DNA of 32,000 bases from Planctomycetota bacterium (GCA_016873165.1 VGXV01000001.1:93643-125642); one strand, 5' to 3'; counted from the first letter of the stretch, positions 4,832 through 30,199 are shown. The notes: generated by a model not told the origin, from the letters alone. Made by a program: numbers and translations.

Positions 4832-5203
4832 ATTTGTAATGTATCGTCAAGCAAATCTGGTTTTCGAAAATTTATATTGCATTAACCTCTTAATGTTAAA
4901 TTCCCGTTGGCAATTTTACTAGAAATTAACATTTCAATAGGTTAAAAAAAGAAAGGGCATGTTGGGAACATGTTTGTGTGTTTTGAACCATCTCCTTATC
5001 GAAATTTTAGAAAAAACGAGATTGTAGCCCTATTCTATATTTTTTGAGGTAATAATCCGTGAGTGAAAAACCACGACCCTGTATTAGAATACTTGTGGCA
5101 TGACGCTTTTTTTTGGTGCAACGAACCTCGTCTTACCACAGTTGATTATTTCCAGTTTCAAAAGACTAAAGCGTTACGTGCATTCACATATTGGAAAATA
5201 TTT

Positions 5204-7267
5204 ATGGAAAACATACAAATAAATATTAACCACCTCTGGGTAATTATTGCCGCCTGCATGGTGTTTTTTATGCAGGTCGGGTTTACCTCCTACGAAACCG
5301 GATTTTCTCAGTCTAAAAATGCCATTAGCATTGCACTGAGAAATCTCGTAGTCACCCTTATTTCAACACTCGCATTTTTTTGTGTCAGCTACGGGTTCAT
5401 GTTTGGCAAAAGCTACAGGGGATTGATCGGGACGGATCTGTTCTTCGTAAACGATTTGACATTGCATCCAAATACGTTGTCGTATTCTTTCTTATTTTTC
5501 CAGATGGCCTTTGCCTCCACTGTAGCGACAATATTAACAGGCGCCATAGCAGAACGTTCCGGCTTTATTCCTAATGTGGCGGGCGCCGCTTTCATCATTG
5601 CTGTTATTTATCCGATCTTCGGGCACTGGGCATGGGGAAATCTTTTTTCCACCGATCAGGCCGGATGGTTGAAAAAACTGGGTTTTATTGATTTTGCAGG
5701 CGCAACGGTAGTGCATTCTATCGGAGGCTGGTTTGCCATGGCTGGCGCAATTGTCGTGGGGCCAAGAATCGGAAAATATAACGCCGATGGAACTTCAAAC
5801 CGGATAGGATTGCATAACGTTCCGCTAGTCACCTTAGGAACCTTTTTTCTTTGGTTCGGATGGTTTGGTTTTAACGGAGGGAGTCTTTTAAGGGTTTCTG
5901 CGAACATAGGATTGGTAATTCTGAATACAAACCTGTCTGCCGCTTCTGCCGGACTTTCCGCCCTCATATTTATTTACGTGACGAAAAAAAGGATCGAATC
6001 AGGAAGTCTTTTTACTGCAATACTTGCCGGATTGGTCGCCATAACGGCAAGTTCAAATATGGTCGATCCCGGCAGTGCGGTATATATTGGCCTTATCACC
6101 GGAATACTGGCAATCAATGCGGAAAGATTCATTGAAAGAGTTTTAAAAATTGACGACCCCGTAAGCGCCGTTGCCGTGCATGGAGTAGGCGGGGTAATCG
6201 GCACGCTCTGTGTTGCGCTATTCGCACAGAAATCGTTGCTTTTGACGGAAAACGGGAACAGGATATACCAATTAGGCATACAGGCATTGGGGGTTATCGT
6301 TGCGTTTTCATGGTCATTCGGCATGGGGATGCTTTTTTTCCTGTGCCTTAAGAAACTAACGAAGATACGGGTAACTCCTGAGGAAGAAAAGAGAGGACTG
6401 AATATTGCTGAATATGAGGATGTCGCATCATGGCTCGATTTTATTAAAATAACACGATTGCAGGATTTAAACCTGATACTTGAAAAAAAGGTAAATGAAA
6501 AAACAGAAGACCTGCAACAGGCAAATATAGCTTTGGAAAAGGCAAACAGGCTTAAATCGGAATTTCTGACAACAATGACGCATGAACTCCGCACGCCTTT
6601 AAACGCAATCATCGGTTTCGCTGAAGTATTGCGCGACGAAATTACCGGCGCTCTCAGCAAAGATCAAAAGGAATACGTAAATGATATTCACAGCAGCGGC
6701 CAACACCTGCTCAATATGATTAACAGCATATTGGATCTTTCAAGAATCGAGACGGGAAAGATGGAACTTCATTATGAGGAATTTTGCATAGAAAACGCAG
6801 TGAACGAAACATTAACCATTATCAACGCATATGCTGACAATAAAGGAATCTCCCTTCACACAAGTGTGCCGGATACGCTCCCCCTCCTTACTGCTGACAA
6901 AGCAAAATTTAAACAGATTCTTTATAATCTCTTATCAAATGCGGTTAAATTTACCCCTGAAAAGGGGAAAATCGACATCAGAGCTTTTCAAATAAACCAC
7001 TCTGTACGATGTGAAATAAGCGATACCGGCATCGGTATTACGCCAGAAGCCAAAGAGGGATTGTTCGATGCGTTTCGTCAGGCAGACGGCTCAATAACGA
7101 GAAGATATGAAGGAACAGGGCTTGGTTTGCACCTGACAAAGCGCCTTGTAGAATTACATGGCGGAAAGATATGGGTCGAAAGCGCTCCCGGAAAAGGAAG
7201 CACGTTCTTTTTTACCCTTCCGGTAAATCCATCAGATACTATCCAAAAAAACAATACAATCCCATAG
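5204..7267 (+). CDS. Ammonium transporter (Amt) domain fused to a HisKA/HATPase_c histidine kinase (ammonium sensor kinase)
   Basis: In-frame ATG at 5204 gives 'MENIQININHLWVIIAACMVFFMQVGFTSYETG', a typical Amt N-terminus. Amt blocks 'DFAGATVVHSIGGWFAMAGAIVVGPR' and 'AVHGVGGVIGTL' are present. A coiled-coil linker follows, then H-box 'MTHELRTPLNAIIGF' and ATPase boxes 'LLSNAVKFT', 'DTGIGI', 'GTGLGL'. The GTG start at 5063 in the track is probably an over-extension. Confidence 0.9.
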   Translation: MENIQININHLWVIIAACMVFFMQVGFTSYETGFSQSKNAISIALRNLVVTLISTLAFFCVSYGFMFGKSYRGLIGTDLFFVNDLTLHPNTLSYSFLFFQMAFASTVATILTGAIAERSGFIPNVAGAAFIIAVIYPIFGHWAWGNLFSTDQAGWLKKLGFIDFAGATVVHSIGGWFAMAGAIVVGPRIGKYNADGTSNRIGLHNVPLVTLGTFFLWFGWFGFNGGSLLRVSANIGLVILNTNLSAASAGLSALIFIYVTKKRIESGSLFTAILAGLVAITASSNMVDPGSAVYIGLITGILAINAERFIERVLKIDDPVSAVAVHGVGGVIGTLCVALFAQKSLLLTENGNRIYQLGIQALGVIVAFSWSFGMGMLFFLCLKKLTKIRVTPEEEKRGLNIAEYEDVASWLDFIKITRLQDLNLILEKKVNEKTEDLQQANIALEKANRLKSEFLTTMTHELRTPLNAIIGFAEVLRDEITGALSKDQKEYVNDIHSSGQHLLNMINSILDLSRIETGKMELHYEEFCIENAVNETLTIINAYADNKGISLHTSVPDTLPLLTADKAKFKQILYNLLSNAVKFTPEKGKIDIRAFQINHSVRCEISDTGIGITPEAKEGLFDAFRQADGSITRRYEGTGLGLHLTKRLVELHGGKIWVESAPGKGSTFFFTLPVNPSDTIQKNNTIP

Positions 7268-9460: not shown

Positions 9461-9637
9461 TTCTCTATAAACTAAAGAATTTCAAATGTTTATCAAATTT
9501 TGCTTTAAATGTCAATTATATTTTAAAATACCACTTTAACTCAAATTTTAATTGACCTATGTACGGTTTGTATTTAACATAAATAACTAGTTTTTATTAT
9601 AGTGCCGGTTACCAACTTTTCAATAGGATTTTTAACT

Positions 9638-10111
9638 ATGCCAAATGATATTTTTGTCGATTTAAATACTCTGGACATAAACAACCCCGTCGTCGATATA
9701 GAAGGAATACGTAGCGTTATACCACATCGGTACGAAATGGAACAACTAAGCGGGATTTTACAATTTGACCCAGAACGTAAAATAATCGTTGGCTACAAAG
9801 TTATTTCACAGAATGAATTTTGGGTAAGGGGGCACATACCAAACCGCCCGCTCATGCCAGGGGTAATGATGCTTGAAGCTGCCGCTCAATTATGCACCTA
9901 TTATTACAAGAAAACAACACACGATGATCGTTTTCTTGGTTTTGGCGGGGTAGACAGTGTAAAATTTAGAGGCAAAGTTGTCCCAGGCGATAACCTTATA
10001 CTCATTGCCCGGAACAAAGAATTGAGACCACGAAGGGCAATCTTTGATACTCAAGGAGTCGTCGACGGAAAACTGGTATATGAAGGGGTAGTAATTGGAA
10101 TGGTCGTATAA
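9638..10111 (+). CDS. FabA/FabZ-family (hotdog fold) 3-hydroxyacyl-ACP dehydratase-like protein, orphan copy
   Basis: 'FWVRGHIPNRPLMPGVMMLEAAAQL' contains the catalytic His and Glu context of FabZ. The start is trimmed to the ATG at 9638. Confidence 0.75.
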   Translation: MPNDIFVDLNTLDINNPVVDIEGIRSVIPHRYEMEQLSGILQFDPERKIIVGYKVISQNEFWVRGHIPNRPLMPGVMMLEAAAQLCTYYYKKTTHDDRFLGFGGVDSVKFRGKVVPGDNLILIARNKELRPRRAIFDTQGVVDGKLVYEGVVIGMVV

Positions 10112-17951: not shown

Positions 17952-18080
17952 TCACTCCTCCTTTTTCCATGCAAATAATATTACAAAAATCAGAGCTATG
18001 GTTACCACCAAAATAACTTTAGGGCTAACATCCGGAATAATTGATTTCTCCATGGATAAAGACAACAATTTGCCTATCAT
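17952..18080 (-). CDS. Possible 42-aa single-pass membrane peptide translationally coupled to lpdA
   Basis: Minus-strand ATG at 18080, preceded by AAGGAG about 10 nt upstream. It encodes MIGKLLSLSMEKSIIPDVSPKVILVVTIALIFVILFAWKKEE. The TGA stop (17954-17952) abuts the lpdA TTG start. It is too short for the ORF track. Confidence 0.35.
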   Translation of the reverse strand: MIGKLLSLSMEKSIIPDVSPKVILVVTIALIFVILFAWKKEE

Positions 18081-18151: not shown

Positions 18152-18183
18152 AAAGGCACACCCTTTTGATTCGATGTGCCTTT
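18152..18183 (-). terminator. Hairpin downstream of the radical SAM gene (candidate operon terminator)
   Basis: aaaggcaca (18152-18160) pairs with tgtgccttt (18175-18183) across a 14-nt loop, 36 nt after the stop codon. A T8 run on the minus strand lies about 20 nt further downstream rather than adjacent. Confidence 0.35.
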
Positions 18184-18218: not shown

Positions 18219-19676
18219 TTATGTGGCAGCGCTTCCTACCAGTGGTTTTGAAACAGACACGGAACTTGACTTATAACAATCTTTGTAATAGTCACCAGAA
18301 TCATACAGCAATCTAAGGTTTTCCAGTACTTGATCAAACACCTGTCGCCAATCGGAGCCTACACGAAAAGCAAACATGGAGTTTTTTGGATTTTTTGTAG
18401 TATTGATAGAATTTCTAAAACGTTTTCTCAAGTTATCACCAGCATAAATATGGTCGTAAACATATTGCATGCCCTCGATAAAATCCTCCAACGTCATATC
18501 TACCAAACGGTGAACAACATGCGCAGTATCATAATATTCCCAATCATCAGGATAATTTTTTCTGAATATCCTCTTCTCCGAGTCCAACCTTTGATACAAC
18601 TGTGTCTTTGGGAAAGGACAGTTAATTCCGAAAGTCAGAATATCAATGTTGTTTTCCAATATAAAATCGGTCATCCTTTTAAATGAATCTTTGCCGTCTC
18701 CATCAGCCCCGAAAACTACCGATCCCCAGACAACCAGGCCTGCATCGTGTATCTTTTGAATACAATCATAATAGCTATCGGTACCCAGCTTTAAATTTAC
18801 CTTTTTATTCATCTTTTCCAGAACAGTTTCATTGGTAGATTCGATGCCCATAAGCATACCAAAACAACCGCTTTTCGCCATATAATCCAATGTTTCCTTA
18901 TCCTGCGAAATATTTAATGCTGTAAACCCTAACCAGTCTTTTTGAAGATTACGGTCGACCATACCTTTAAAAAGATTTCTGGCTCTTTCGTTTGATCGCT
19001 TCCCATGTCCGTAAAAATTATCCTCTGCCAGCATGAGCCCCTTATAATCAGTTGCCGCCAATTCTTCCAATACGTCTTCGTAAGGTCTTTCCCTGAATTT
19101 TCTCCCCTGAAACGTCGGAACACTGCAAAAATCGCAATAATTCGGACACCCTTTTGTTGTAACAATGGAAGAAAATTTATAATTATATTTTTTCCTCATG
19201 AACTCCCTGTCCGGGAAAACCCTTTTCATCAAATTTAAAGGAGGCAGACCTCCGTCATAAATCTTTTTTAACTTTCCTGCTTCAAAGTCTTTTATTACCT
19301 GAGGCCATACTTCCTCCGCTTCACCAATAAAAACAGCGTCCACGTATTTGGAAGCTTCTTCAGGCACAACTGAAGCGTGTATCCCTCCCATAATTACAGG
19401 CATCCCCTTCTCTTTACATACTTTAGCAATTTTGTATGCTCTGGGTGATTGGTAGGTTACGGCCGTAATACAAACAAGGTCTACTGGCGCAAATGTAAGT
19501 TCCTCATTATCGTCAATTGCCAAATCAATATTTTCATCAATTACATCAAATTCCCAATCGCCAGGCGTAAGGGATTTAATGTAAGCAAGGTTCAGTGGCA
19601 TCTGAACAATTACCGTAATACTCTCCTCTCCATGCCTCCCCGGCTTATGCGGATTAATGAGCATCATTTTTTTCAT
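18219..19676 (-). CDS. B12-binding-domain radical SAM protein (class B rSAM)
   Basis: The N-terminal ~140 aa are cobalamin-binding-like ('VDLVCITAVTYQSPRAYKIAKVCKEKGMPVIMGGIH'). The CxxxCxxC cluster motif is 'GCPNYCDFCSV' (Cys177/181/184, nt 19125-19148). A GGAGG SD lies 7 nt upstream of the ATG, inside the upstream gene. Confidence 0.85.
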   Translation of the reverse strand: MKKMMLINPHKPGRHGEESITVIVQMPLNLAYIKSLTPGDWEFDVIDENIDLAIDDNEELTFAPVDLVCITAVTYQSPRAYKIAKVCKEKGMPVIMGGIHASVVPEEASKYVDAVFIGEAEEVWPQVIKDFEAGKLKKIYDGGLPPLNLMKRVFPDREFMRKKYNYKFSSIVTTKGCPNYCDFCSVPTFQGRKFRERPYEDVLEELAATDYKGLMLAEDNFYGHGKRSNERARNLFKGMVDRNLQKDWLGFTALNISQDKETLDYMAKSGCFGMLMGIESTNETVLEKMNKKVNLKLGTDSYYDCIQKIHDAGLVVWGSVVFGADGDGKDSFKRMTDFILENNIDILTFGINCPFPKTQLYQRLDSEKRIFRKNYPDDWEYYDTAHVVHRLVDMTLEDFIEGMQYVYDHIYAGDNLRKRFRNSINTTKNPKNSMFAFRVGSDWRQVFDQVLENLRLLYDSGDYYKDCYKSSSVSVSKPLVGSAAT

Positions 19677-19680
19677 ATTT

Positions 19681-21138
19681 CTACCTCCAATTCTCCAAAA
19701 TTAAATTAGCAACACCCCATCCTGAAGAAACAACAGCACATATTCCAGGGCCAGGCCTTGTCCAATGACCCGTTAAATAAAGACCACCTACCGGCGTTGT
19801 CGGCGAAAGCCTTTGGTCCCATATTTGATCGGTACTTACGGCCCATCCATAAGCAGCCCCATTCGTATTCAACGTGTAACGCTCCAGGGTTTTCGGAGTA
19901 GCCGCTTCTATTACTTCTATATATTTTTTTATATCAGGCAAATAACCTTCCAACCTCTCCAAAGTGTTTGTAATCATATTTTGTTTTAATAGTTTCCAAT
20001 CCGTTACGTTTTTATAAAAATTATCCTTCTTATATACCACCAATGATACTATTTGCTTATTTTGGGGAGCAAGGGTCGGACATATTTTGGTTGGCACAGA
20101 AATATACAACCATTCATTCTCCATAGAATCATAATCCGAGCCAGATAAATAAAACCCTCTTTTTAAATTACCTAAATCTATCCCTTTACCAATCCCCAGA
20201 TATAAAAGGAAAAAAGTACAACTCTCCTTCATCCCTTCGATTTTTTTACGATACACCACATCAACATCATTATCATCCATCAAATCATAAAATGTCTGCC
20301 TTGCATCAATGTTTGATACAACTACGCGAGAATGTATCTCCTTGCCATTATCTAATTTAACGCCTGCAATAAATTTTTTGTTTATTAATATTTTTTTGAC
20401 TTTGGATGATAGCATAACGTGCCCGCCAAAATCAATAAATTTCCTAAAAATTGCATTTGCAAACTCTTGCGTTCCTCCTTTTGGGAAATAGGCGCCATCT
20501 TTGAGATAATTAATCATCATTTGAGACATAGCAAGCGCAGATGCCTTCGATGGCGGCAAACCGATATAGCCCCATTGCCCCGAAAGAACCATTTTTAGCT
20601 CACTATCATCAAAAAAATGATCAAGCATCATCCCATACGTCATGTCTTTATATTTTTCTATAATCTGACTTTTTTCATTATTAAATGTAGCGCGATAAAG
20701 TTTTATGAAATCCTGGAAAAAAATCTTAATGTTATCACTTTCATGCGGATATCTTGTTTGTAAACGCAACTGATATTCATCTAAATCGGCAGGAATTTCA
20801 ATGCTGAATGAAGGAAAAACTAAATTGTCCATAGGATCTAAATGATAAAAATCCATCTCAATCCCAAGTGTTTTAAAACAACGTCCAACTACGCTCCATT
20901 TCCCACACCCTCCGATGTGATGGACAGCGGCATCAAAATGAAATCCTTTTCTTTTAAACGAAGTACAGTATCCGCCCGGAATAAAATGCTGCTCGACAAG
21001 AAGTACTTTTTTCCCACTTTTGGAAAGGAATGCGGCACATATAAGACCAGCAATACCTGCACCGATTACAATAACATCGTAAAAAGAGTATAATGCATCA
21101 ATTTTTGTGGATTTTACAGGAGAATTGTCTGATAGCAT
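19681..21138 (-). CDS. FAD-dependent oxidoreductase of the phytoene desaturase (CrtI)/amine oxidase family
   Basis: N-terminal dinucleotide fold 'YDVIVIGAGIAGLICAAFLSKSGKKVLLVEQHFIPGGY'; C-terminal 'GLYLTGHWTRPGPGI' typical of CrtI-like proteins. Confidence 0.8.
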   Translation of the reverse strand: MLSDNSPVKSTKIDALYSFYDVIVIGAGIAGLICAAFLSKSGKKVLLVEQHFIPGGYCTSFKRKGFHFDAAVHHIGGCGKWSVVGRCFKTLGIEMDFYHLDPMDNLVFPSFSIEIPADLDEYQLRLQTRYPHESDNIKIFFQDFIKLYRATFNNEKSQIIEKYKDMTYGMMLDHFFDDSELKMVLSGQWGYIGLPPSKASALAMSQMMINYLKDGAYFPKGGTQEFANAIFRKFIDFGGHVMLSSKVKKILINKKFIAGVKLDNGKEIHSRVVVSNIDARQTFYDLMDDNDVDVVYRKKIEGMKESCTFFLLYLGIGKGIDLGNLKRGFYLSGSDYDSMENEWLYISVPTKICPTLAPQNKQIVSLVVYKKDNFYKNVTDWKLLKQNMITNTLERLEGYLPDIKKYIEVIEAATPKTLERYTLNTNGAAYGWAVSTDQIWDQRLSPTTPVGGLYLTGHWTRPGPGICAVVSSGWGVANLILENWR

Positions 21139-21144
21139 AAAACT

Positions 21145-22383
21145 CTATTTAAATTTTGATACTATCAAAGAAGAGCTGTTTCCTAAACGTGAGATAGAAT
21201 TTATAAGGACGTTTTTGACTGGAACAGTTGCCGCTTTTTCTACAACCAAACCAAGATCACATGCCGGATCGGGTTCCTTATAGTTGATTATCGGAGGAAC
21301 AGTATGTGTTTTGATAGACATCACTGCCGCCACTGTCTGCAATGATCCGGATGCATCAAGACATTCGCCTGTCATGGATTTGATAGCAGTTACAGGAATG
21401 AGTTTCGCGCGCATACCGAAGACCTCTTTTAATGCCTTTACTTCCATTATATCGCCATAGACTCCGGAATATGCATTGGCGGATATATAAGAAATGTCAT
21501 GAAGCGTCAGTTTTGCATCTTCCAGGGCATTTTTGATAGCCCTGATGCTGCCGTCTGCTTGATAATCTTTGCTCATTGCCATTTTCGGATCAAAAGCGGT
21601 TCCATACCCCTTAACTTCAGCATAGATGTTCGCATTCCTCTTCAAAGCATCCTCCAGAGTTTCAAGAATAACCAATGCAGAGCCTTCACCAAGGATCATA
21701 CCATTACGCCTTTTATCAAAAGGTGCGCTGATTTCCAGAGTACCGCTTTTACTTCCTGCCAGTATTTTTGAATTGTGCGCTCCCCAAAAGATATCATGAC
21801 CCAAACCATAAACTCCCCCTGCAATTACCGCCTTCACCCTCCCCATCTTCAGGAAATCTGACGCGTAAATGATCGCGTCAATGCTGCTTGTTACGCCATT
21901 TGAAATTGTAGTATTTAACCCTGTCGCTTTGCAAAAAATTGAAGCACGGCTAGCAGGAGCGTTTATCACTGTGTTAGGAAAGTCCATAGGATTTACATAA
22001 TTTGGACCTTCCCGTAACGACTGAAAATCAAAAGAACTTATACTATCTATACTGCCATACGTAGAACCAACAACAATCCCTAATTCATCTTCGCTATATG
22101 TGTTATTTTCAAGATTTGCATCCTTGATTGCCAGGCATGTCGCAGAAGATACCAGGAGAGACGTTCTATCGATATGGCGAATGCCTTTTTTCCCCAAATA
22201 AACTGTGGAGTCGAAATTTGTAATTTCCCCCGCCAGTTTGCTATTAAAATTACTTACATCAAACAACGTTATCGGTTTAATACCTGATACACCGTTTATC
22301 AAATTTTGCCAAAAAACATCTTTCGTTTCTCCGAGAGGTGAAATGACAGATATTCCTGTAATGACAATCCTCGTTTCGCCCAT
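21145..22383 (-). CDS. Ketosynthase-like protein lacking the Cys-His-His triad (KS-beta / chain-length-factor-like partner)
   Basis: Full-length thiolase-fold KS homolog, colinear with the upstream KS. The aligned catalytic positions read Val ('ISNGVTSS' vs 'PTACAAG'), Asn ('ISANAYSG' vs 'ISAHGTGT') and Glu ('SMTGECLD' vs 'SMIGHTMG'). Confidence 0.8.
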   Translation of the reverse strand: MGETRIVITGISVISPLGETKDVFWQNLINGVSGIKPITLFDVSNFNSKLAGEITNFDSTVYLGKKGIRHIDRTSLLVSSATCLAIKDANLENNTYSEDELGIVVGSTYGSIDSISSFDFQSLREGPNYVNPMDFPNTVINAPASRASIFCKATGLNTTISNGVTSSIDAIIYASDFLKMGRVKAVIAGGVYGLGHDIFWGAHNSKILAGSKSGTLEISAPFDKRRNGMILGEGSALVILETLEDALKRNANIYAEVKGYGTAFDPKMAMSKDYQADGSIRAIKNALEDAKLTLHDISYISANAYSGVYGDIMEVKALKEVFGMRAKLIPVTAIKSMTGECLDASGSLQTVAAVMSIKTHTVPPIINYKEPDPACDLGLVVEKAATVPVKNVLINSISRLGNSSSLIVSKFK

Positions 22384-22485
22384 TTATAAACCTCTTCTTA
22401 ATCTTATACGCTTCAACTTGTGGAAAAACCGATATAAATACAATTACTTTTTTAACAAGGATACTATTGATAAAAACGCACCTAT

Positions 22486-23706
22486 TTAACCCGTGAATTT
22501 TTTTATCACCAAACAGCTGTTATTGCCTCCAAAGGCATGAGCATTGTTCAATGCGATGTTTACAACTTGTTTTCTCATCACGTTGGGAACATAATCCAAA
22601 TCACACTCCGGATCTGGAGTAACATAGTTTATCGTAGGAGGAATAATGTCATTTTGTACCACTAATGCACAGGCAATCGATTCTATAACACTTGCAGCCC
22701 CCATCGTATGCCCGATCATTGATTTTATTGAGCTAATTGCCAGATGGCCTGGCTTGTCGCCAAAGACCTTCTTTATTGAAATTGTTTCTGCCTTGTCATT
22801 TGCCGGAGTTCCTGTGCCATGAGCGCTTATGTATTGAACATCTTCAGGCCTGAGATTTGAGTACTTCAACGCCTTTGCCATTGCAGAAACTACTCCTTCG
22901 CCATCCGGATGCGGTATCGTGATATGATATGCATCGCAACTCAAACCATATCCGATAATTTCGGCATAGATATTTGCATTTCTTTTCTCTGCGCATTCCA
23001 GCGATTCTAAAACAAGTATTCCCGCACCTTCACCCACCAGCATACCTTTTCTATTCTTATCAAATGGCTGGCATATTTCAGGTGCTATTGCTCCTAAGCG
23101 GGCAAAACCGGTAAAAGCAACTTTAGAAAAGGGGTCCGACCCTCCGGCAACCATCGCATCAACCCTTCCGAATCTGATTAAATCATACGCATAACCAACC
23201 GCGTAATTCCCTGCCGCACAGGCAGTAGGTATTATGGTATTGGGGCCTTTTAACCCAAATTCAATCGCAATGTTGGCGGGAATATTATTACACGGATGCT
23301 TCAAAAACAAACCGGGGTCTACTTTATCCTCACCGTCTCTATGCCTGATATGATTTACCTTTTCTAATATTTGTATTTCACCGGCAGTTGTGCCTACAGA
23401 AACTCCCATTCTTTCCAAGTTAACCTTGGATAAATCAATTTTTGCGTCGTCTAACGCAAGCTTCGTAGCCGCTATGGCAAATTGTGATCCCTTACCAATC
23501 TCTTTTAAAACACCGTTCTTAATATAATCTGAATAGTTAAAATTTTTTACCTCACACCCTCTGTGCACTCTGTATCCGGAAGTATCTATGCAAGCCACTT
23601 CATCCACACCGGATTTACCTGCAATAAGCGCACTCCAAAAAACATCTTTCCCCGAACCAATAGGGGTTATCATTCCCACACCAGTTATTACAACACGTTT
23701 ATTCAT
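22486..23706 (-). CDS. fabF: 3-oxoacyl-ACP synthase II-type ketosynthase (catalytically complete)
   Basis: '[15 protein letters not shown]', active-site '[10 protein letters not shown]', '[15 protein letters not shown]', '[14 protein letters not shown]', '[14 protein letters not shown]'. The ATG at 23706 is preferred. An alternative TTG at 23718 directly abuts the fabZ stop. Confidence 0.88.
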
Positions 23707-23718
23707 GATATTTTTCAA

Positions 23719-24168
23719 TTAAACTAACGAACTTTTCTCCGCAATCCCAAAAGTCAAAGCCGCTTTAGCTGCAATCTTTTCCTGTACTTTCACTACAGAC
23801 TGAACTATAGCGCCTTTCGATACAATTTTCTCAACAATAACTTCTATAGTAAGTTGATCACCAGGAATGACGGGTTTTGTAAATCTGGCATTATTAACTG
23901 ACGCCAGCAGAAAAACCGTATCTCCATCGTTTTTGGAAGGAAGGCTTTTTTTGAACAAAATTATTGATGCTTGCGCCATCGCCTCAATGATTAACACACC
24001 GGGCATGATGGCAAAATCAGGGAAATGGCCAACAAAGACAGGTTCATTACCGGAAATATTTTTTACGCAAACGATCCTCTTGCCTTCTTCAAACTCAATC
24101 GCTCTATCAATAAATATGAAGGGATATTTTTGAGGAAGAAGATTCCGTATTTCCTCAAAAAGTATCAT
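23719..24168 (-). CDS. fabZ: 3-hydroxyacyl-ACP dehydratase FabZ, operon-dedicated copy
   Basis: 'LPQKYPFIFIDR', 'NEPVFVGHFPDFAIMPGVLIIEAMAQ' (catalytic His and Glu present). The start is trimmed to the ATG at 24168. Confidence 0.85.
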   Translation of the reverse strand: MILFEEIRNLLPQKYPFIFIDRAIEFEEGKRIVCVKNISGNEPVFVGHFPDFAIMPGVLIIEAMAQASIILFKKSLPSKNDGDTVFLLASVNNARFTKPVIPGDQLTIEVIVEKIVSKGAIVQSVVKVQEKIAAKAALTFGIAEKSSLV

Positions 24169-24214
24169 AGTTGAATATCTCTTTCTTCCATTGCGCAATA
24201 GTTTCGAATGATTC

Positions 24215-24478
24215 TTACTTCTCACTCTCCGCCAGAACCGATTTTGTCAAACCAATCGTGGCACTTAACGAGGTAATATCTACAAGTTTTTCTTCGGGAA
24301 TTTGCACTTTAAATTTCTTTTCTATGAGAGCCAAAATCTCAAGCGCCAAAAGAGAATCTATCTCTAAGTCTTGAAAAAAATTCGCATCCCTTTTCTCCCA
24401 GATTTCTTTTTCATCCATCTCTGTAACCTCAGCAACTATAGAGGTTACACCCTTTTCAATCTCTTCGTCGTTCAACAT
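24215..24478 (-). CDS. acpP: Acyl carrier protein (dedicated)
   Basis: 87 aa and acidic, with phosphopantetheine attachment motif 'FFQDLEIDSLLALEI' (Ser42, nt 24353-24355). AGGAGG lies 5 nt upstream of the ATG. Confidence 0.85.
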   Translation of the reverse strand: MLNDEEIEKGVTSIVAEVTEMDEKEIWEKRDANFFQDLEIDSLLALEILALIEKKFKVQIPEEKLVDITSLSATIGLTKSVLAESEK

Positions 24479-24608
24479 AATCCTCCTTAATAATTTTTGC
24501 CTTATAAAATCCCTACGTCCATCCCATCATTTGCGAAATCTAAAGGAGAATCATGGTAGCAGACACAAATTATATTGTCAATAATATTCTTTCTGCGAAT
24601 GATAAAAA

Positions 24609-26990: not shown

Positions 26991-27295
26991 ATTAATATCA
27001 ATATAAAGAAATAACTTCCCGATCATCTCTATAATTATTTTTGAATATGTAAAATTAAGGTTGTATTTTCTTCAATTATCTATTATTATAAATTCCATGT
27101 TGTGAATTATTTCGTCAATAAAATAAGGTGTAATTGATAATGATTGCATTGTGCAGCCATAGGCATTCAAGCGATACGAATCAAAATACCGCATTAAAAA
27201 AATCCTTCCCATTATCACAATTCAAACATTTCTGGATTAATTTTTACAAAACATCTTTTTACCTTATATGGGATTTTTTTTCCCGTTATACATCC

Positions 27296-28711
27296 ATGCT
27301 ATTTATTCTACTACTAGCAACCATTATTTTAAAATCAATTGCAATAGCAGGTGATCCGGAGAATTCTGTCTTTGGATATCATCCCGCGGCAGTATTAGAA
27401 AATGGCTATTCTGACAACGGTTTGTTTGATGCCGAATATATAGGCGTAAAGTGGACACGCCAGGCAACACCTGCTTATTGGTCAAACGTGCAACCAGATC
27501 TAAATGCCGATGAGTACGATTTTGATTTTTATGATAAACAGTGGGGTAATGTTCCGACAAGTATGTGCATTATGGGATGCCTTGCTCCGGGAAGCGGACG
27601 AACATTAGAAGATTCCTGGTATCCAACTAATGAGGAACAATATATCGCATTTGTAAAAGCAACTGTGGAACGTTACGATGGAGATGGAATTGACGATATG
27701 CCAGGTTTGCAGAACCCGATTAAATACTGGCAGGTGGGAAACGAGTTTGGAGGCTCCGGATGGTCGGATTTTGCAGACTTACAAAAAATATCTTATCAGG
27801 CAATTAAGGAGACATGTCCTGATTGTACTGTGTTGCTTGGCGGCATAGCAAGTTTATCTTTTGATTACATGTCCCGTTTTGATGAATATTACGGATCCGT
27901 TATTGAAGAATTGAACGGCAATTTCATAGATATTATCGATATTCATTGGTATGAAGAAGCTGACGGCGGTTATCGTTTGAAAGACAATACAACCGGTGAT
28001 GACATTTTGGACCATGTTCGTGATTTTCTGGTTAAGAGCGGCTTTCCCGAAGATATGCCTATTTGGTCAACAGAAATGGGAACTTATTCAGGCCAACCTG
28101 AAGGACTACCTTACCAAACAGAGCACCAGCATGCTACAGACAATTTTAAACGTTATATTTACGGTCTATCAAGAGGCATAGCAAAAATTTTCCAATCCTA
28201 TGGAATGATGGAAGGTTGGCAAGATGAAGATGATACTTTTGACCATACAGGTTTAATATATGAAGGGAAAAATTCCAGCGACAGAGGTCTTGGAATAAAA
28301 AAACTCGGATATTATTCTTATAAAAAAATGACTGAAACATTAGAAGGCGCCGATTGGTCAACATTAGAAATGTTACGTGATGGTACCGACACGGATTTAC
28401 TTTATCTTTTCAGGATTATAAAAGATAATATCCCCATCTACATTGCATGGTGGGACTATTTTGACGATCCGGATTATTTCCAGGGAAATACAAAAGATAT
28501 ACGTTTAAGAGGTATTCCGGGAAACATCATTTCCATTACAAAGGTTGTTCCGGAATATGTATATGGAGAAGAAATAACCGATTATGATACGGCTTTCACC
28601 GTTTATACCAGCCCCATACGAAGGGGTATTGCAAAAATCTCTCTAGATGAAACACCAGTTTTCATAACACTGTCTCAAGACTTCGATCCATCACGGAGAA
28701 AAAAAAAGTAA
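27296..28711 (+). CDS. Secreted clan GH-A (TIM-barrel glycoside hydrolase)-like protein, paralog 1
   Basis: The internal Met gives signal-like 'MLFILLLATIILKSIAIAG'. 'YWQVGNEF' is an acid/base NE motif and 'PIWSTEMG' is a nucleophile Glu context. The track start at 27134 adds 54 non-conserved residues. The function call is weaker than the gene call. Confidence 0.6.
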   Translation: MLFILLLATIILKSIAIAGDPENSVFGYHPAAVLENGYSDNGLFDAEYIGVKWTRQATPAYWSNVQPDLNADEYDFDFYDKQWGNVPTSMCIMGCLAPGSGRTLEDSWYPTNEEQYIAFVKATVERYDGDGIDDMPGLQNPIKYWQVGNEFGGSGWSDFADLQKISYQAIKETCPDCTVLLGGIASLSFDYMSRFDEYYGSVIEELNGNFIDIIDIHWYEEADGGYRLKDNTTGDDILDHVRDFLVKSGFPEDMPIWSTEMGTYSGQPEGLPYQTEHQHATDNFKRYIYGLSRGIAKIFQSYGMMEGWQDEDDTFDHTGLIYEGKNSSDRGLGIKKLGYYSYKKMTETLEGADWSTLEMLRDGTDTDLLYLFRIIKDNIPIYIAWWDYFDDPDYFQGNTKDIRLRGIPGNIISITKVVPEYVYGEEITDYDTAFTVYTSPIRRGIAKISLDETPVFITLSQDFDPSRRKKK

Positions 28712-28780
28712 AAACAAACAGTTATCGAATTTCAAAACCCTTTGCACATTGAATTCAGCAAATCATTCAGGTACATTGCC

Positions 28781-30199
28781 ATGTCTAAAATTACATCATT
28801 TTTCTCTCTCTTTAAATTGACTGTACCATTTATTATTTTAACAACATCCTCAATATCCACAGCAGCAACCACCGAAGAATCGGTGTTCGGATATCATCCT
28901 GCCGGTATATTTGAAGATGGTTATCAAAATAACGGCTACGAGGATGCAGAGTTTATAGGGATTAAATGGACCCGTCAGGCAACACCGGCATACTGGTCGA
29001 TAGTCCAGCCAGACATTGAAAAAGAAGAATATGACTTCGAATTTCATGACGAACAATGGGGTTCAGTGCCTGTAAGCATTTCCATAATGGGAGATTTGGC
29101 GCCGGGAAAAGACCGCACCGTAGAAAATTCATGGCAACCGATAGATGAAGATGCATATGTTGCATTCGTGAAAACAACTGTTGAACGTTATGACGGAGAC
29201 GGCATAGACGATATGCCCGGCCTCAAAAACCCTATAAAATACTGGCAAGTATGTAATGAATTCGGAGATTCCGATTGGTCTGATTTTGCAGATTTACAGC
29301 GAATTACCTACCTTGCCATCAAAGAAGCATGTTCCGAATGCTACGTTTTATTTGCAGGCATTCAAAGCCTCTCCTACGATTACATGCCTCGTTTTGAAGA
29401 GAAATATGGGCCCGTCATTAAAGAGTTAAATGGCAAGTACCTTGATATAATAGATTTCCACTGGTATGAAGAAGGCAACGGAGGGTACAAACTTAAGGAT
29501 AATACGTCCGGCAATGATATTCTCGATTATATCCGCAATTACTTTACAGAAAGTGGTTTTTCAGAAAACATTCCCATCTGGTCAACGGAAATGGGCACGT
29601 ATTCCGGTGAACCTGAAGGTTTGCCCTATCAAACGGAACACGAACAGGCAATAGACAACTTTAAACGCTACATTTACGGCCTCTCCAGAGGAATATCTAA
29701 AATCTTCCAATCGTATGGGTTGATGGAGGGTTGGCATGATGAAGATACAATATTCGATCATACAGGATTAATCTACGAGGGAAAAAATTCTGACGACCTC
29801 GGTTTAGGCGTAAAAAAACTTGGATATTATTCTTATAAAAAAATGACTGAGATGCTTACTAACGCTAATTTCTCGACATTAGAAATGGTACATGACGGCA
29901 CCCAATCCGATCTGGTCTATGTTTTCAAAGTAGAAAAGGAAAATGAACCACTTTACATTGCATGGTGGGATTATTTTGATGATCCAACCTATTCTTCCCG
30001 CGCAAGAAAACGAGTAAACATAAATGGTTTTGACGGAAGATACGTAACTATTACCAAAGTTGTTCCTGATTTTGAGTACGGGAAAGAAGTTGATGATTAT
30101 CATTCCGCATTTACCGTTAATACACGTCGTGTACAGAGAGGAAATGTCAGAATCTCTCTGGATGAAACACCCATCTTTATAACTATCTCGAACAATTAG
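28781..30199 (+). CDS. Secreted clan GH-A-like protein, paralog 2
   Basis: The ATG at 28781 gives 'MSKITSFFSLFKLTVPFIILTTSSISTAA'. It is colinear with paralog 1 over the whole mature length, with no obvious indels and roughly 70% identical residues by eye. It has 'YWQVCNEF' and 'PIWSTEMG'. Confidence 0.6.
   Translation: MSKITSFFSLFKLTVPFIILTTSSISTAATTEESVFGYHPAGIFEDGYQNNGYEDAEFIGIKWTRQATPAYWSIVQPDIEKEEYDFEFHDEQWGSVPVSISIMGDLAPGKDRTVENSWQPIDEDAYVAFVKTTVERYDGDGIDDMPGLKNPIKYWQVCNEFGDSDWSDFADLQRITYLAIKEACSECYVLFAGIQSLSYDYMPRFEEKYGPVIKELNGKYLDIIDFHWYEEGNGGYKLKDNTSGNDILDYIRNYFTESGFSENIPIWSTEMGTYSGEPEGLPYQTEHEQAIDNFKRYIYGLSRGISKIFQSYGLMEGWHDEDTIFDHTGLIYEGKNSDDLGLGVKKLGYYSYKKMTEMLTNANFSTLEMVHDGTQSDLVYVFKVEKENEPLYIAWWDYFDDPTYSSRARKRVNINGFDGRYVTITKVVPDFEYGKEVDDYHSAFTVNTRRVQRGNVRISLDETPIFITISNN

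Follow-up and report, generated by a model that had tools for sequence, protein, structure and literature searches.

We found that a 32,000-nucleotide (nt) stretch of DNA from a Planctomycetota bacterium (GCA_016873165.1 VGXV01000001.1:93643-125642; this whole stretch is called the window below) contains an operon that is almost certainly the orthologue of "Cluster I", genes kuste3603-3608 of Kuenenia stuttgartiensis. The operon occupies positions 18219-24478 on the minus strand. Its six co-oriented genes encode an acyl carrier protein (ACP), the dehydratase FabZ, a FabF-type ketosynthase (KS), a KS homologue whose catalytic triad is missing, a flavoprotein similar to CrtI and a radical SAM enzyme with a B12-binding domain. 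Cluster I was first proposed to function in ladderane synthesis in 2009 (Rattray et al. 2009). The operon is already known, and its recovery is a rediscovery of the field's prime ladderane candidate. That it acts directly in ladderane ring formation is plausible, and the circumstantial evidence inclines us somewhat towards this view.

The identification with Cluster I is based on protein identities, matches to structures of anammox proteins, a characteristic set of Val/Asn/Glu substitutions and the published gene order. In a genome scan with the radical SAM protein, the best matches were in Candidatus Kuenenia hertensis (96% identity) and Kuenenia sp. (94%), followed by Brocadia, Jettenia, Loosdrechtia and Scalindua, and the protein is 94.4% identical to that of K. 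stuttgartiensis. The exact radical SAM and flavoprotein sequences also occur in an NCBI metagenome-assembled genome (MAG) labeled "Planctomycetes bacterium" and in lake-type JGI metagenome contigs. Central-metabolism genes flank the operon: icd and mdh, which are divergent, and downstream a bona fide lpdA (TIGR01350, 513 bits). These flanking genes are syntenic in Kuenenia too. Judged by its sequence, the window is part of a genome of the Candidatus Kuenenia lineage.

The literature describes Cluster I (kuste3603-3608) as amxACP, amxFabZ, amxFabF2 and amxFabFmut plus a protein resembling phytoene dehydrogenase and a B12 radical SAM enzyme. K. stuttgartiensis has the same six genes in the same order and orientation as the window. 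The two belong to different species of the Kuenenia lineage, and no functional difference between them is evident. Four of the six proteins (the ACP, FabZ and both KS proteins) have orthologues of solved structure. An initial annotation, made from the sequence alone, had stated that clusters of this composition in anammox genomes were proposed as ladderane candidates, and this statement is borne out by the literature (Rattray et al. 2009; Javidpour et al. 2016; Dietl et al. 2023; Granatino et al. 2026).

All six genes lie on the minus strand. They encode, in order, the ACP (24215-24478; 87 amino acids; kuste3603-type, the amxACP orthologue), FabZ (23719-24168; 149 amino acids from its ATG; kuste3604-type, the amxFabZ orthologue), the KS (22486-23718; kuste3605-type, amxFabF2), the triad-less KS homologue (21145-22383; kuste3606-type, amxFabFmut), the flavoprotein (19681-21138; kuste3607-type, also abbreviated PDH) and the radical SAM enzyme (18219-19676; kuste3608-type). 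An alternative GTG start for FabZ at 24225, upstream of the ATG, would overlap the ACP gene. The KS gene starts with TTG and has an ATG at 23706. Direct reading of the sequence gives intergenic gaps, from ACP to radical SAM, of 46, 0-12, 102, 6 and 4 nt. Shine-Dalgarno sequences precede the ACP gene (AGGAGG, 6 nt 5′ of the ATG), the triad-less KS gene, which is the fourth (GAGG), and the radical SAM gene (GGAGG, overlapping the final codons of the flavoprotein gene). The strand, gaps and Shine-Dalgarno sites are all as initially annotated.

The same is true of the gene-by-gene assignment. The Pfam domains of all six proteins exceed the gathering cut-offs, and the profile hidden Markov model (HMM) searches found the expected PP-binding, FabA, ketoacyl-synt N and C (in both KS proteins), Amino_oxidase/NAD_binding_8 and B12-binding plus Radical_SAM domains; NCBIfam agrees for FabZ and the FabF-type KS. 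Domain scans also upheld the statement that the operon lacks a ketoreductase, enoyl reductase, malonyl transferase, thioesterase and exporter or other transporter, and they found no adh_short/KR gene in the operon or in the rest of the window.

A sigma-70-like promoter match (24553-24581, minus strand; TTGACA-17-TACCAT with a TG extension) lies approximately 75 nt upstream of the ACP start. It agrees with 10 of 12 consensus positions and has the highest score in the scan, but is a consensus match only, and the promoter and terminator consensus scans of the region found sites no more frequently than in shuffled sequence. A stem-loop at 18152-18183 (minus strand), 35-65 nt past the stop codon of the radical SAM gene, has a minimum free energy of −18.5 kcal/mol (z = −4.5 versus shuffles) and no clean U-tract behind it. 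This stem-loop is probably the 3′ end of the operon. The 102-nt spacer between the two KS genes shows no significant structure (z = +0.8), and its length differs between genera. Rfam and tRNA scans of the window, whose GC content is roughly 39%, gave no matches.

The ACP has a PP-binding domain (51 bits) and the DSL motif for phosphopantetheine attachment. It is identical in 82 of 85 residues to PDB entry 7auf, which, given this near-identity, we take to be the published amxACP structure. FabZ exceeds the cut-off of its NCBIfam model (NF000582, 150.8 bits versus 113), matches PDB 8ayd (285 bits, E 7e-85) and has the GHFP and IEAMAQ catalytic motifs in its translation. According to the summary in a recent preprint, amxFabZ favors acyl chains of at most 6-8 carbons (Dietl et al. 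2023, summarized in Granatino et al. 2026).

A divergent FabZ-like paralogue is located at 9602-10111 (plus strand), 8 kb from the operon. It fails to reach the FabZ cut-offs and shares 31% identity with the FabZ of the operon. Loci of Kuenenia, Brocadia, Jettenia and Loosdrechtia keep this paralogue within 4-8 kb of the operon at 73-90% identity, and in Scalindua it does not occur within 10 kb.

The two KS proteins are 33% identical to each other in an alignment, and both have Pfam ketoacyl-synt N and C domains. The first has an intact triad (Cys167/His300/His337), exceeds the cut-off of NCBIfam PRK07314 (439.8 bits versus 387) and matches chain B of PDB 9s5h with 806.6 bits. The second has Val164/Asn303/Glu340 at the triad positions and matches chain C of the same entry with 747.5 bits. 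An active KS encoded beside a triad-less homologue is the arrangement by which a KS paired with a chain-length factor (CLF) is recognized, and the second KS is predicted to be a catalytically dead, CLF-like partner of the first. At the CLF cysteine position it has Val164 and not Gln, the residue found there in CLFs of aromatic type II polyketide synthases (PKSs); related loci have Ala, Leu, Glu or Phe. The substitutions in the second KS are identical to those published for Kuste3606, which has Val/Asn/Glu at the triad positions (Rattray et al. 2009, Table 2).

Biochemical data on the orthologues agree with a KS/CLF-like pair. The amxFabF2 and amxFabFmut proteins form a KS/CLF-like heterodimer that decarboxylates malonyl-ACP with a preference for amxACP, and in crosslinking it takes C6 and C8 over C16 (Granatino et al. 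2026, preprint). These data refute an older idea in which the dead KS joins two lipid halves (Granatino et al. 2026). We take PDB 9s5h/9s5i to be the crystal structure of this heterodimer.

The flavoprotein (Pfam Amino_oxidase 57 bits, NAD_binding_8 54 bits) appears to be a CrtI/CrtISO-like FAD enzyme. It matches the CrtI structure PDB 4dgk over its full length (E 3e-25), but fails both the CrtI family model TIGR02734 (crtI_fam; 154.2 bits versus a cut-off of 238.1) and a carotenoid isomerase model (165.9 bits versus 586.9). Its counterpart Kuste3607 failed to complement crtI, i.e., it restored no lycopene in a crtI-deleted pathway (Javidpour et al. 2016).

By its domain architecture, the radical SAM protein is predicted to be a cobalamin-dependent enzyme of class B. 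It has B12-binding (PF02310, 39.5 bits versus a cut-off of 32.1) and Radical_SAM (PF04055, 53.7 bits versus 29.5) domains, a weak DUF4070 match and the cluster motif CPNYCDFC (CX3CX2C). This architecture is common to BchE, HpnJ, OxsB and QCMT (PDB 9ccb), the last of which is the closest solved structure (E 5e-10). The scores with BchE-, HpnJ- and QCMT-family models are 70-90 bits, far under the cut-offs of 360-650 bits. Among the best NCBIfam matches, methylases (QCMT, PhpK, HpnR) and the ring-forming HpnJ and BchE score equally. No NCBIfam model reaches its cut-off, and no curated NCBIfam model covers the family. The best model is rSAM_ladder_B12 (TIGR04072), and membership in it was rejected at 88.6 bits versus a cut-off of 360; the nearest relatives of the protein fail too. 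An exhaustive HMMER search of 1.84 billion representatives assigned 1,421 clusters (50% identity) to the family at E ≤ 1e-30, with many members 33-62% identical to the window's protein.

Within anammox bacteria, the cluster is conserved as a unit. The survey recovered 62 Brocadiales loci; in 51 of them the six genes are complete and in order, over spans of 5.9-6.9 kb. These 51 loci cover Kuenenia, Brocadia, Jettenia, Loosdrechtia, Scalindua and deeper Brocadiales. Nine of the other loci are cut by contig ends, and two, in Ca. Anammoxibacter, have the radical SAM gene alone. Identity to the window's proteins never falls below 72% for the radical SAM protein and 75% for the ACP, the two best conserved, and goes down to 54% for the flavoprotein, the least conserved. 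Cluster I is also highly expressed in anammox bacteria (Javidpour et al. 2016).

In a neighbor-joining tree, the anammox radical SAM proteins form one clade (200 of 200 bootstraps) that includes the window's protein. Members of this clade are at least 68% identical to each other and at most 64% identical to anything outside. For the window's protein itself, identities are 71-96% within the clade and reach no more than 61% outside it.

The two solitary loci in Ca. Anammoxibacter (L052, L057) could suggest that this lineage lost the five partner genes, but the full cluster is present on another contig of the same assembly. L057 (10001-11383) is a second, solitary radical SAM paralogue of the anammox type. 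In the full cluster of Ca. Anammoxibacter (JAIQZQ01; L086, 2196-11467), the six genes are preceded by an extra radical SAM gene (535 amino acids) and an O-methyltransferase gene.

The operon's architecture is not restricted to anammox bacteria. The pattern-based genome scan with the radical SAM protein, which reaches close relatives only, found Brocadiales and five distant homologues (35-38% identity) with none of the other five genes nearby. A search for homologues of the flavoprotein returned only anammox sequences among its best 120 matches, and is therefore uninformative on outgroups. Exclusivity to anammox bacteria as suggested by the pattern-based scan is an artefact: it was overturned by the exhaustive search of representatives together with look-ups of genomic context and a metagenome scan. 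The nearest single outgroup protein, P0122 (45% identity), stands alone amid chaperone genes and is uninformative.

Orthologous operons occur in high-GC genomes of the Acidobacteria, Planctomycetota and Myxococcota types. A MAG labeled "Acidobacteria bacterium 13_1_40CM_2_60_7" (L077/L078, 60% GC) has ACP, FabA/Z, KS, KS, amine oxidase and B12 radical SAM genes with 4-nt gene overlaps, and the radical SAM gene is followed by a ketoreductase gene and then a divergent FabH gene. A Planctomycetota MAG (L079/L080, 57% GC) has the same six genes, followed by a second radical SAM gene, a second KS pair and a ketoreductase gene. The complete clusters in these two genomes are at L077 5476-12338 and L079 3859-14359. 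A JGI metagenome scan seeded with non-anammox radical SAM proteins added four more complete copies (the whole loci L087, L089, L093 and L095) as well as nine incomplete loci consistent with them; the GC content of every one of these contigs lies within 53-71%. Further arrangements are radical SAM-radical SAM-KS on a Myxococcota contig (L081, 67% GC), KS-KS-radical SAM in a Planctomycetota MAG (L082, 72% GC) and radical SAM-KS-KS-ECH-ketoreductase on a metagenome contig (L084, 52% GC).

The proteins of L077 and L079 are 55-59% (ACP), 46-48% (FabZ), 54-59% (KS), 34-39% (dead KS), 38-43% (flavoprotein) and 52-57% (radical SAM) identical to those of the window. Over all complete non-anammox operons, the identity of the radical SAM proteins to the window's is 51-57%. 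These operons share the gene order and the triad-less second KS with the window, but have a high GC content (53-72%) and lie outside the anammox clade. The second KS lacks the triad in every related locus examined. Non-anammox versions usually have adjoining ketoreductase and FabH genes, and some have a second radical SAM gene and a second KS/CLF pair in tandem. No enoyl-reductase-type domain was found among their annotated genes. The anammox clade nests in a wider radical SAM family that includes these outsiders (199 of 200 bootstraps, neighbor-joining) and is often linked to KS/CLF gene pairs.

The Granatino et al. 2026 preprint states that the cluster is unique to ladderane producers. Our findings qualify this statement for the architecture of the operon, but not for the anammox-specific clade. 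The initial annotation had regarded its ladderane reading as vulnerable if the same gene order were common in organisms that make no ladderanes and linked there to a known product. The phyletic and synteny survey located the complete order in non-anammox genomes in addition to the 51 anammox loci, and no product is known from the former. It is doubtful, in our estimation, that the non-anammox carriers make ladderane-like lipids with radical-cyclized, strained rings. A literature search on the Planctomycetota MAG QQUA01 found nothing.

Several other gene neighborhoods were observed around relatives of the radical SAM enzyme. A paralogue 52-57% identical to the window's protein adjoins the lipid-transport genes mlaD, mlaE and mlaF (L074 179-1612, L083 10001-11425, L107 1-1353); one of its carriers is labeled Ca. 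Hypogeohydataceae (class Brocadiia). A homologue with approximately 35% identity lies in a conserved lipid-type cluster in MAGs of Vicinamibacterales/Acidobacteria (L062 7159-15611, also L064, L065 and L067). This cluster encodes an AMP-dependent ligase, a class I/II aminotransferase, the radical SAM protein, a large protein (with a fatty-acid desaturase domain at its end in L062) and a CDP-alcohol phosphatidyltransferase. Two unrelated non-anammox clusters with KS/CLF and radical SAM genes each have a small muconolactone-isomerase-like (MIase) gene nearby (L079 20277-20639, L084 15775-16113).

Given these observations, we consider how the operon might function. The explanation that we modestly favor over its competitors taken together is that the operon encodes a branch of type II fatty-acid synthesis that is self-contained, depends on an ACP and builds the rings. 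The KS/CLF heterodimer would prime synthesis by decarboxylating malonyl-amxACP, as reported for the orthologues. Ketoreduction is probably borrowed from the housekeeping FabG, since the anammox operon has no ketoreductase gene and its relatives carry one adjacently. Because no recognizable enoyl reductase occurs in the cluster of any lineage, as in highly reducing type II PKSs, the line probably delivers short enoyl- or polyenoyl-ACPs to the flavoprotein and the radical SAM enzyme. These two enzymes would then perform the redox and C-C bond chemistry for the distal ladderane ring system, and the linear carbons still missing may come from ordinary fatty-acid synthesis or from a ligation.

Growth of a fatty acyl chain starts at its methyl end, so enzymes that prefer short chains would act while the carbons of the distal (ladder) end are being assembled. 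The short-chain preference therefore fits early ring formation on an ACP-bound chain at least as well as it fits a separate, linear C6-C8 piece. A parallel for such chemistry is jawsamycin, made by Jaw4/Jaw5. Jaw5 belongs to the HemN-like class of radical SAM enzymes, has no cobalamin domain and is partnered with a type I iterative PKS. In the review literature, jawsamycin is presented as the sole other ketoacyl lipid system for which modification by a radical SAM enzyme has been proposed. Its iterative PKS with a radical SAM cyclopropanase, which acts on enoyl thioesters as the chain grows, serves as the model for building rings one by one on an elongating enoyl chain; Jaw5 is described there as making cyclopropanes by transfer of a SAM-derived methylene group. 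Reviews from 2026 list three unproven mechanisms for ladderanes: cyclization of a polyene, ligation of separate halves, and formation of the rings one after another on an enoyl chain as it grows. They treat the ladderane-cluster enzyme as an uncharacterized, presumably non-methylating cobalamin radical SAM enzyme, and reviews group the "ladderane" enzyme with ring-forming or rearranging members of this class.

A number of facts weigh against a role in ring formation. When E. coli expressed kuste3603-3608 under anaerobic conditions, each transcript and each protein was found, but fatty acids were unchanged and no new ones appeared (Javidpour et al. 2016). Polyunsaturated or cyclopropyl intermediates have not been observed in anammox bacteria, and the literature to 2026 reports no experiment that ties any Cluster I protein to a ladderane. 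Characterized cobalamin radical SAM enzymes are mostly methyltransferases, with only a handful of non-methylating members according to reviews. The nearest solved structure, QCMT, is itself a C-methyltransferase, and the window's protein falls outside the NCBIfam model with "ladder" in its name. The six-gene order also occurs in the Acidobacteria MAG, the 57%-GC Planctomycetota MAG and several high-GC metagenome contigs. To our knowledge, ladderanes are not known from such organisms.

Much of what one might do with the operon has been published for Cluster I, i.e., HMM assignment, comparative genomics, detection of transcripts and proteins from heterologous expression, gas chromatography-mass spectrometry of E. 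coli expressing all six genes, and crystal structures of the ACP, FabZ and KS/CLF proteins. These tests do not support one element of the initial annotation, the remodeling of a long polyunsaturated acyl-ACP, given that expression of the six genes was negative, Kuste3607 was inactive on phytoene and, in the assays applied, amxFabZ and the KS/CLF pair preferred C6-C8 chains over C16. Its remark that the cyclobutane-forming chemistry has not been reconstituted still holds in the literature to 2026. On balance, the annotation is partly supported: it named the right cluster and the hypothesis of the literature, whose function is unproven, and it overrated the novelty.

The strongest competitor to ring formation is that the operon makes another modified lipid, such as methyl-branched or otherwise decorated fatty acids, and that the ladderane rings are encoded elsewhere. 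The radical SAM protein would then be a C-methyltransferase or other tailoring enzyme acting on short acyl- or enoyl-ACPs, and the flavoprotein a desaturase or saturase. We regard this explanation as clearly less probable than ring formation, yet as one to be taken seriously. The methylases among the closest structure and best NCBIfam matches and the rarity of non-methylating relatives speak for it, but the ring-forming HpnJ and BchE score just as high. Similarly, the heterologous expression of all six genes yielded no ladderanes, but this negative result is uninformative if the radical SAM enzyme was inactive in E. coli; the enzyme has so far not been obtained by heterologous expression (Dietl et al. 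2023). The orthologous operons in non-anammox, high-GC bacteria and the existence in K. stuttgartiensis of other candidate clusters with further radical SAM enzymes are also consistent with another product. Against it, the anammox clade of each of the six proteins is sharply set apart from outside homologues, and the cluster is universal in sampled anammox genomes and highly expressed.

A further explanation, which we judge to be quite improbable, is that the cluster resembles highly reducing type II PKSs of the aryl-polyene or ishigamide type and makes a polyene pigment or a specialized metabolite instead of a bulk membrane lipid. The Granatino et al. 2026 preprint itself draws an analogy to highly reducing type II PKSs. 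As is the case here, ishigamide Iga11/Iga12 and aryl-polyene systems lack an enoyl reductase and combine an active KS and its triad-less partner with a separate ACP and a FabZ/ApeI-like dehydratase. The KS also scores 341 bits with the ishigamide KS Iga11 (PDB 6kxd, equated with Iga11 from its molecule name and the list in the preprint), comparable to roughly 350 bits for FabFs. In addition, ApeI/ApeP-like Pfam matches occur in FabZ-type genes of an identical contig and of non-anammox relatives. Surveys with antiSMASH list "ladderane" clusters in many phyla, several of them non-anammox, although the accessible parts of these surveys do not describe the gene content.

Unlike the ishigamide and aryl-polyene systems, the anammox operon has no ketoreductase gene and adds the CrtI-like flavoprotein and the cobalamin radical SAM enzyme. 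Thioesterase, aryl-starter and export genes are absent from it as well. The CLF-like subunit is FabF-derived and has Val where aromatic PKS CLFs have Gln. Moreover, every anammox lineage conserves the cluster strictly and expresses it highly, and the literature reports no polyene from anammox bacteria. Finally, a chance juxtaposition of housekeeping fatty-acid genes and unrelated enzymes, for which one could cite only the unremarkable frequency of promoter and terminator matches, is effectively refuted by synteny, because the gaps are 0-102 nt with Shine-Dalgarno sites present, the order is identical in 51 genomes across families sharing just 54-80% protein identity, and it is kept in other phyla with 4-nt gene overlaps.

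We also note properties of other genes in the window. A hydrophobic open reading frame of 42 codons (17952-18080, minus strand) has its own Shine-Dalgarno sequence and finishes exactly at the TTG with which lpdA starts; the gene calls on the JGI contigs with identical proteins include it as well. The gene at 5063-7267 (plus strand) encodes a fusion of an ammonium transporter domain with a HisKA/HATPase histidine kinase. We take this fusion to be of the kind described as an ammonium sensor in K. stuttgartiensis. Two adjacent open reading frames at 27134-28711 and 28742-30199 (plus strand), encoding 525 and 485 amino acids, have no Pfam or NCBIfam match.

The origin of the five fused cyclobutane rings is among the oldest open problems of lipid biochemistry, and anammox bacteria are not genetically manipulable. 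Operons with KS/CLF and cobalamin radical SAM genes make up a wider family, of which the anammox operon is one branch. The presence of the six-gene layout beyond anammox bacteria, in unrelated bacteria of soil type, tempers the argument from its uniqueness to ladderane producers. At the same time, the non-anammox loci that include ketoreductase and FabH genes offer fuller gene sets for heterologous expression and comparative lipidomics. If ladderane-like lipids were indeed made outside anammox bacteria, ladderanes would be neither a trait nor a biomarker of anammox alone, and the pathway could then be solved in organisms that grow faster and may be tractable.

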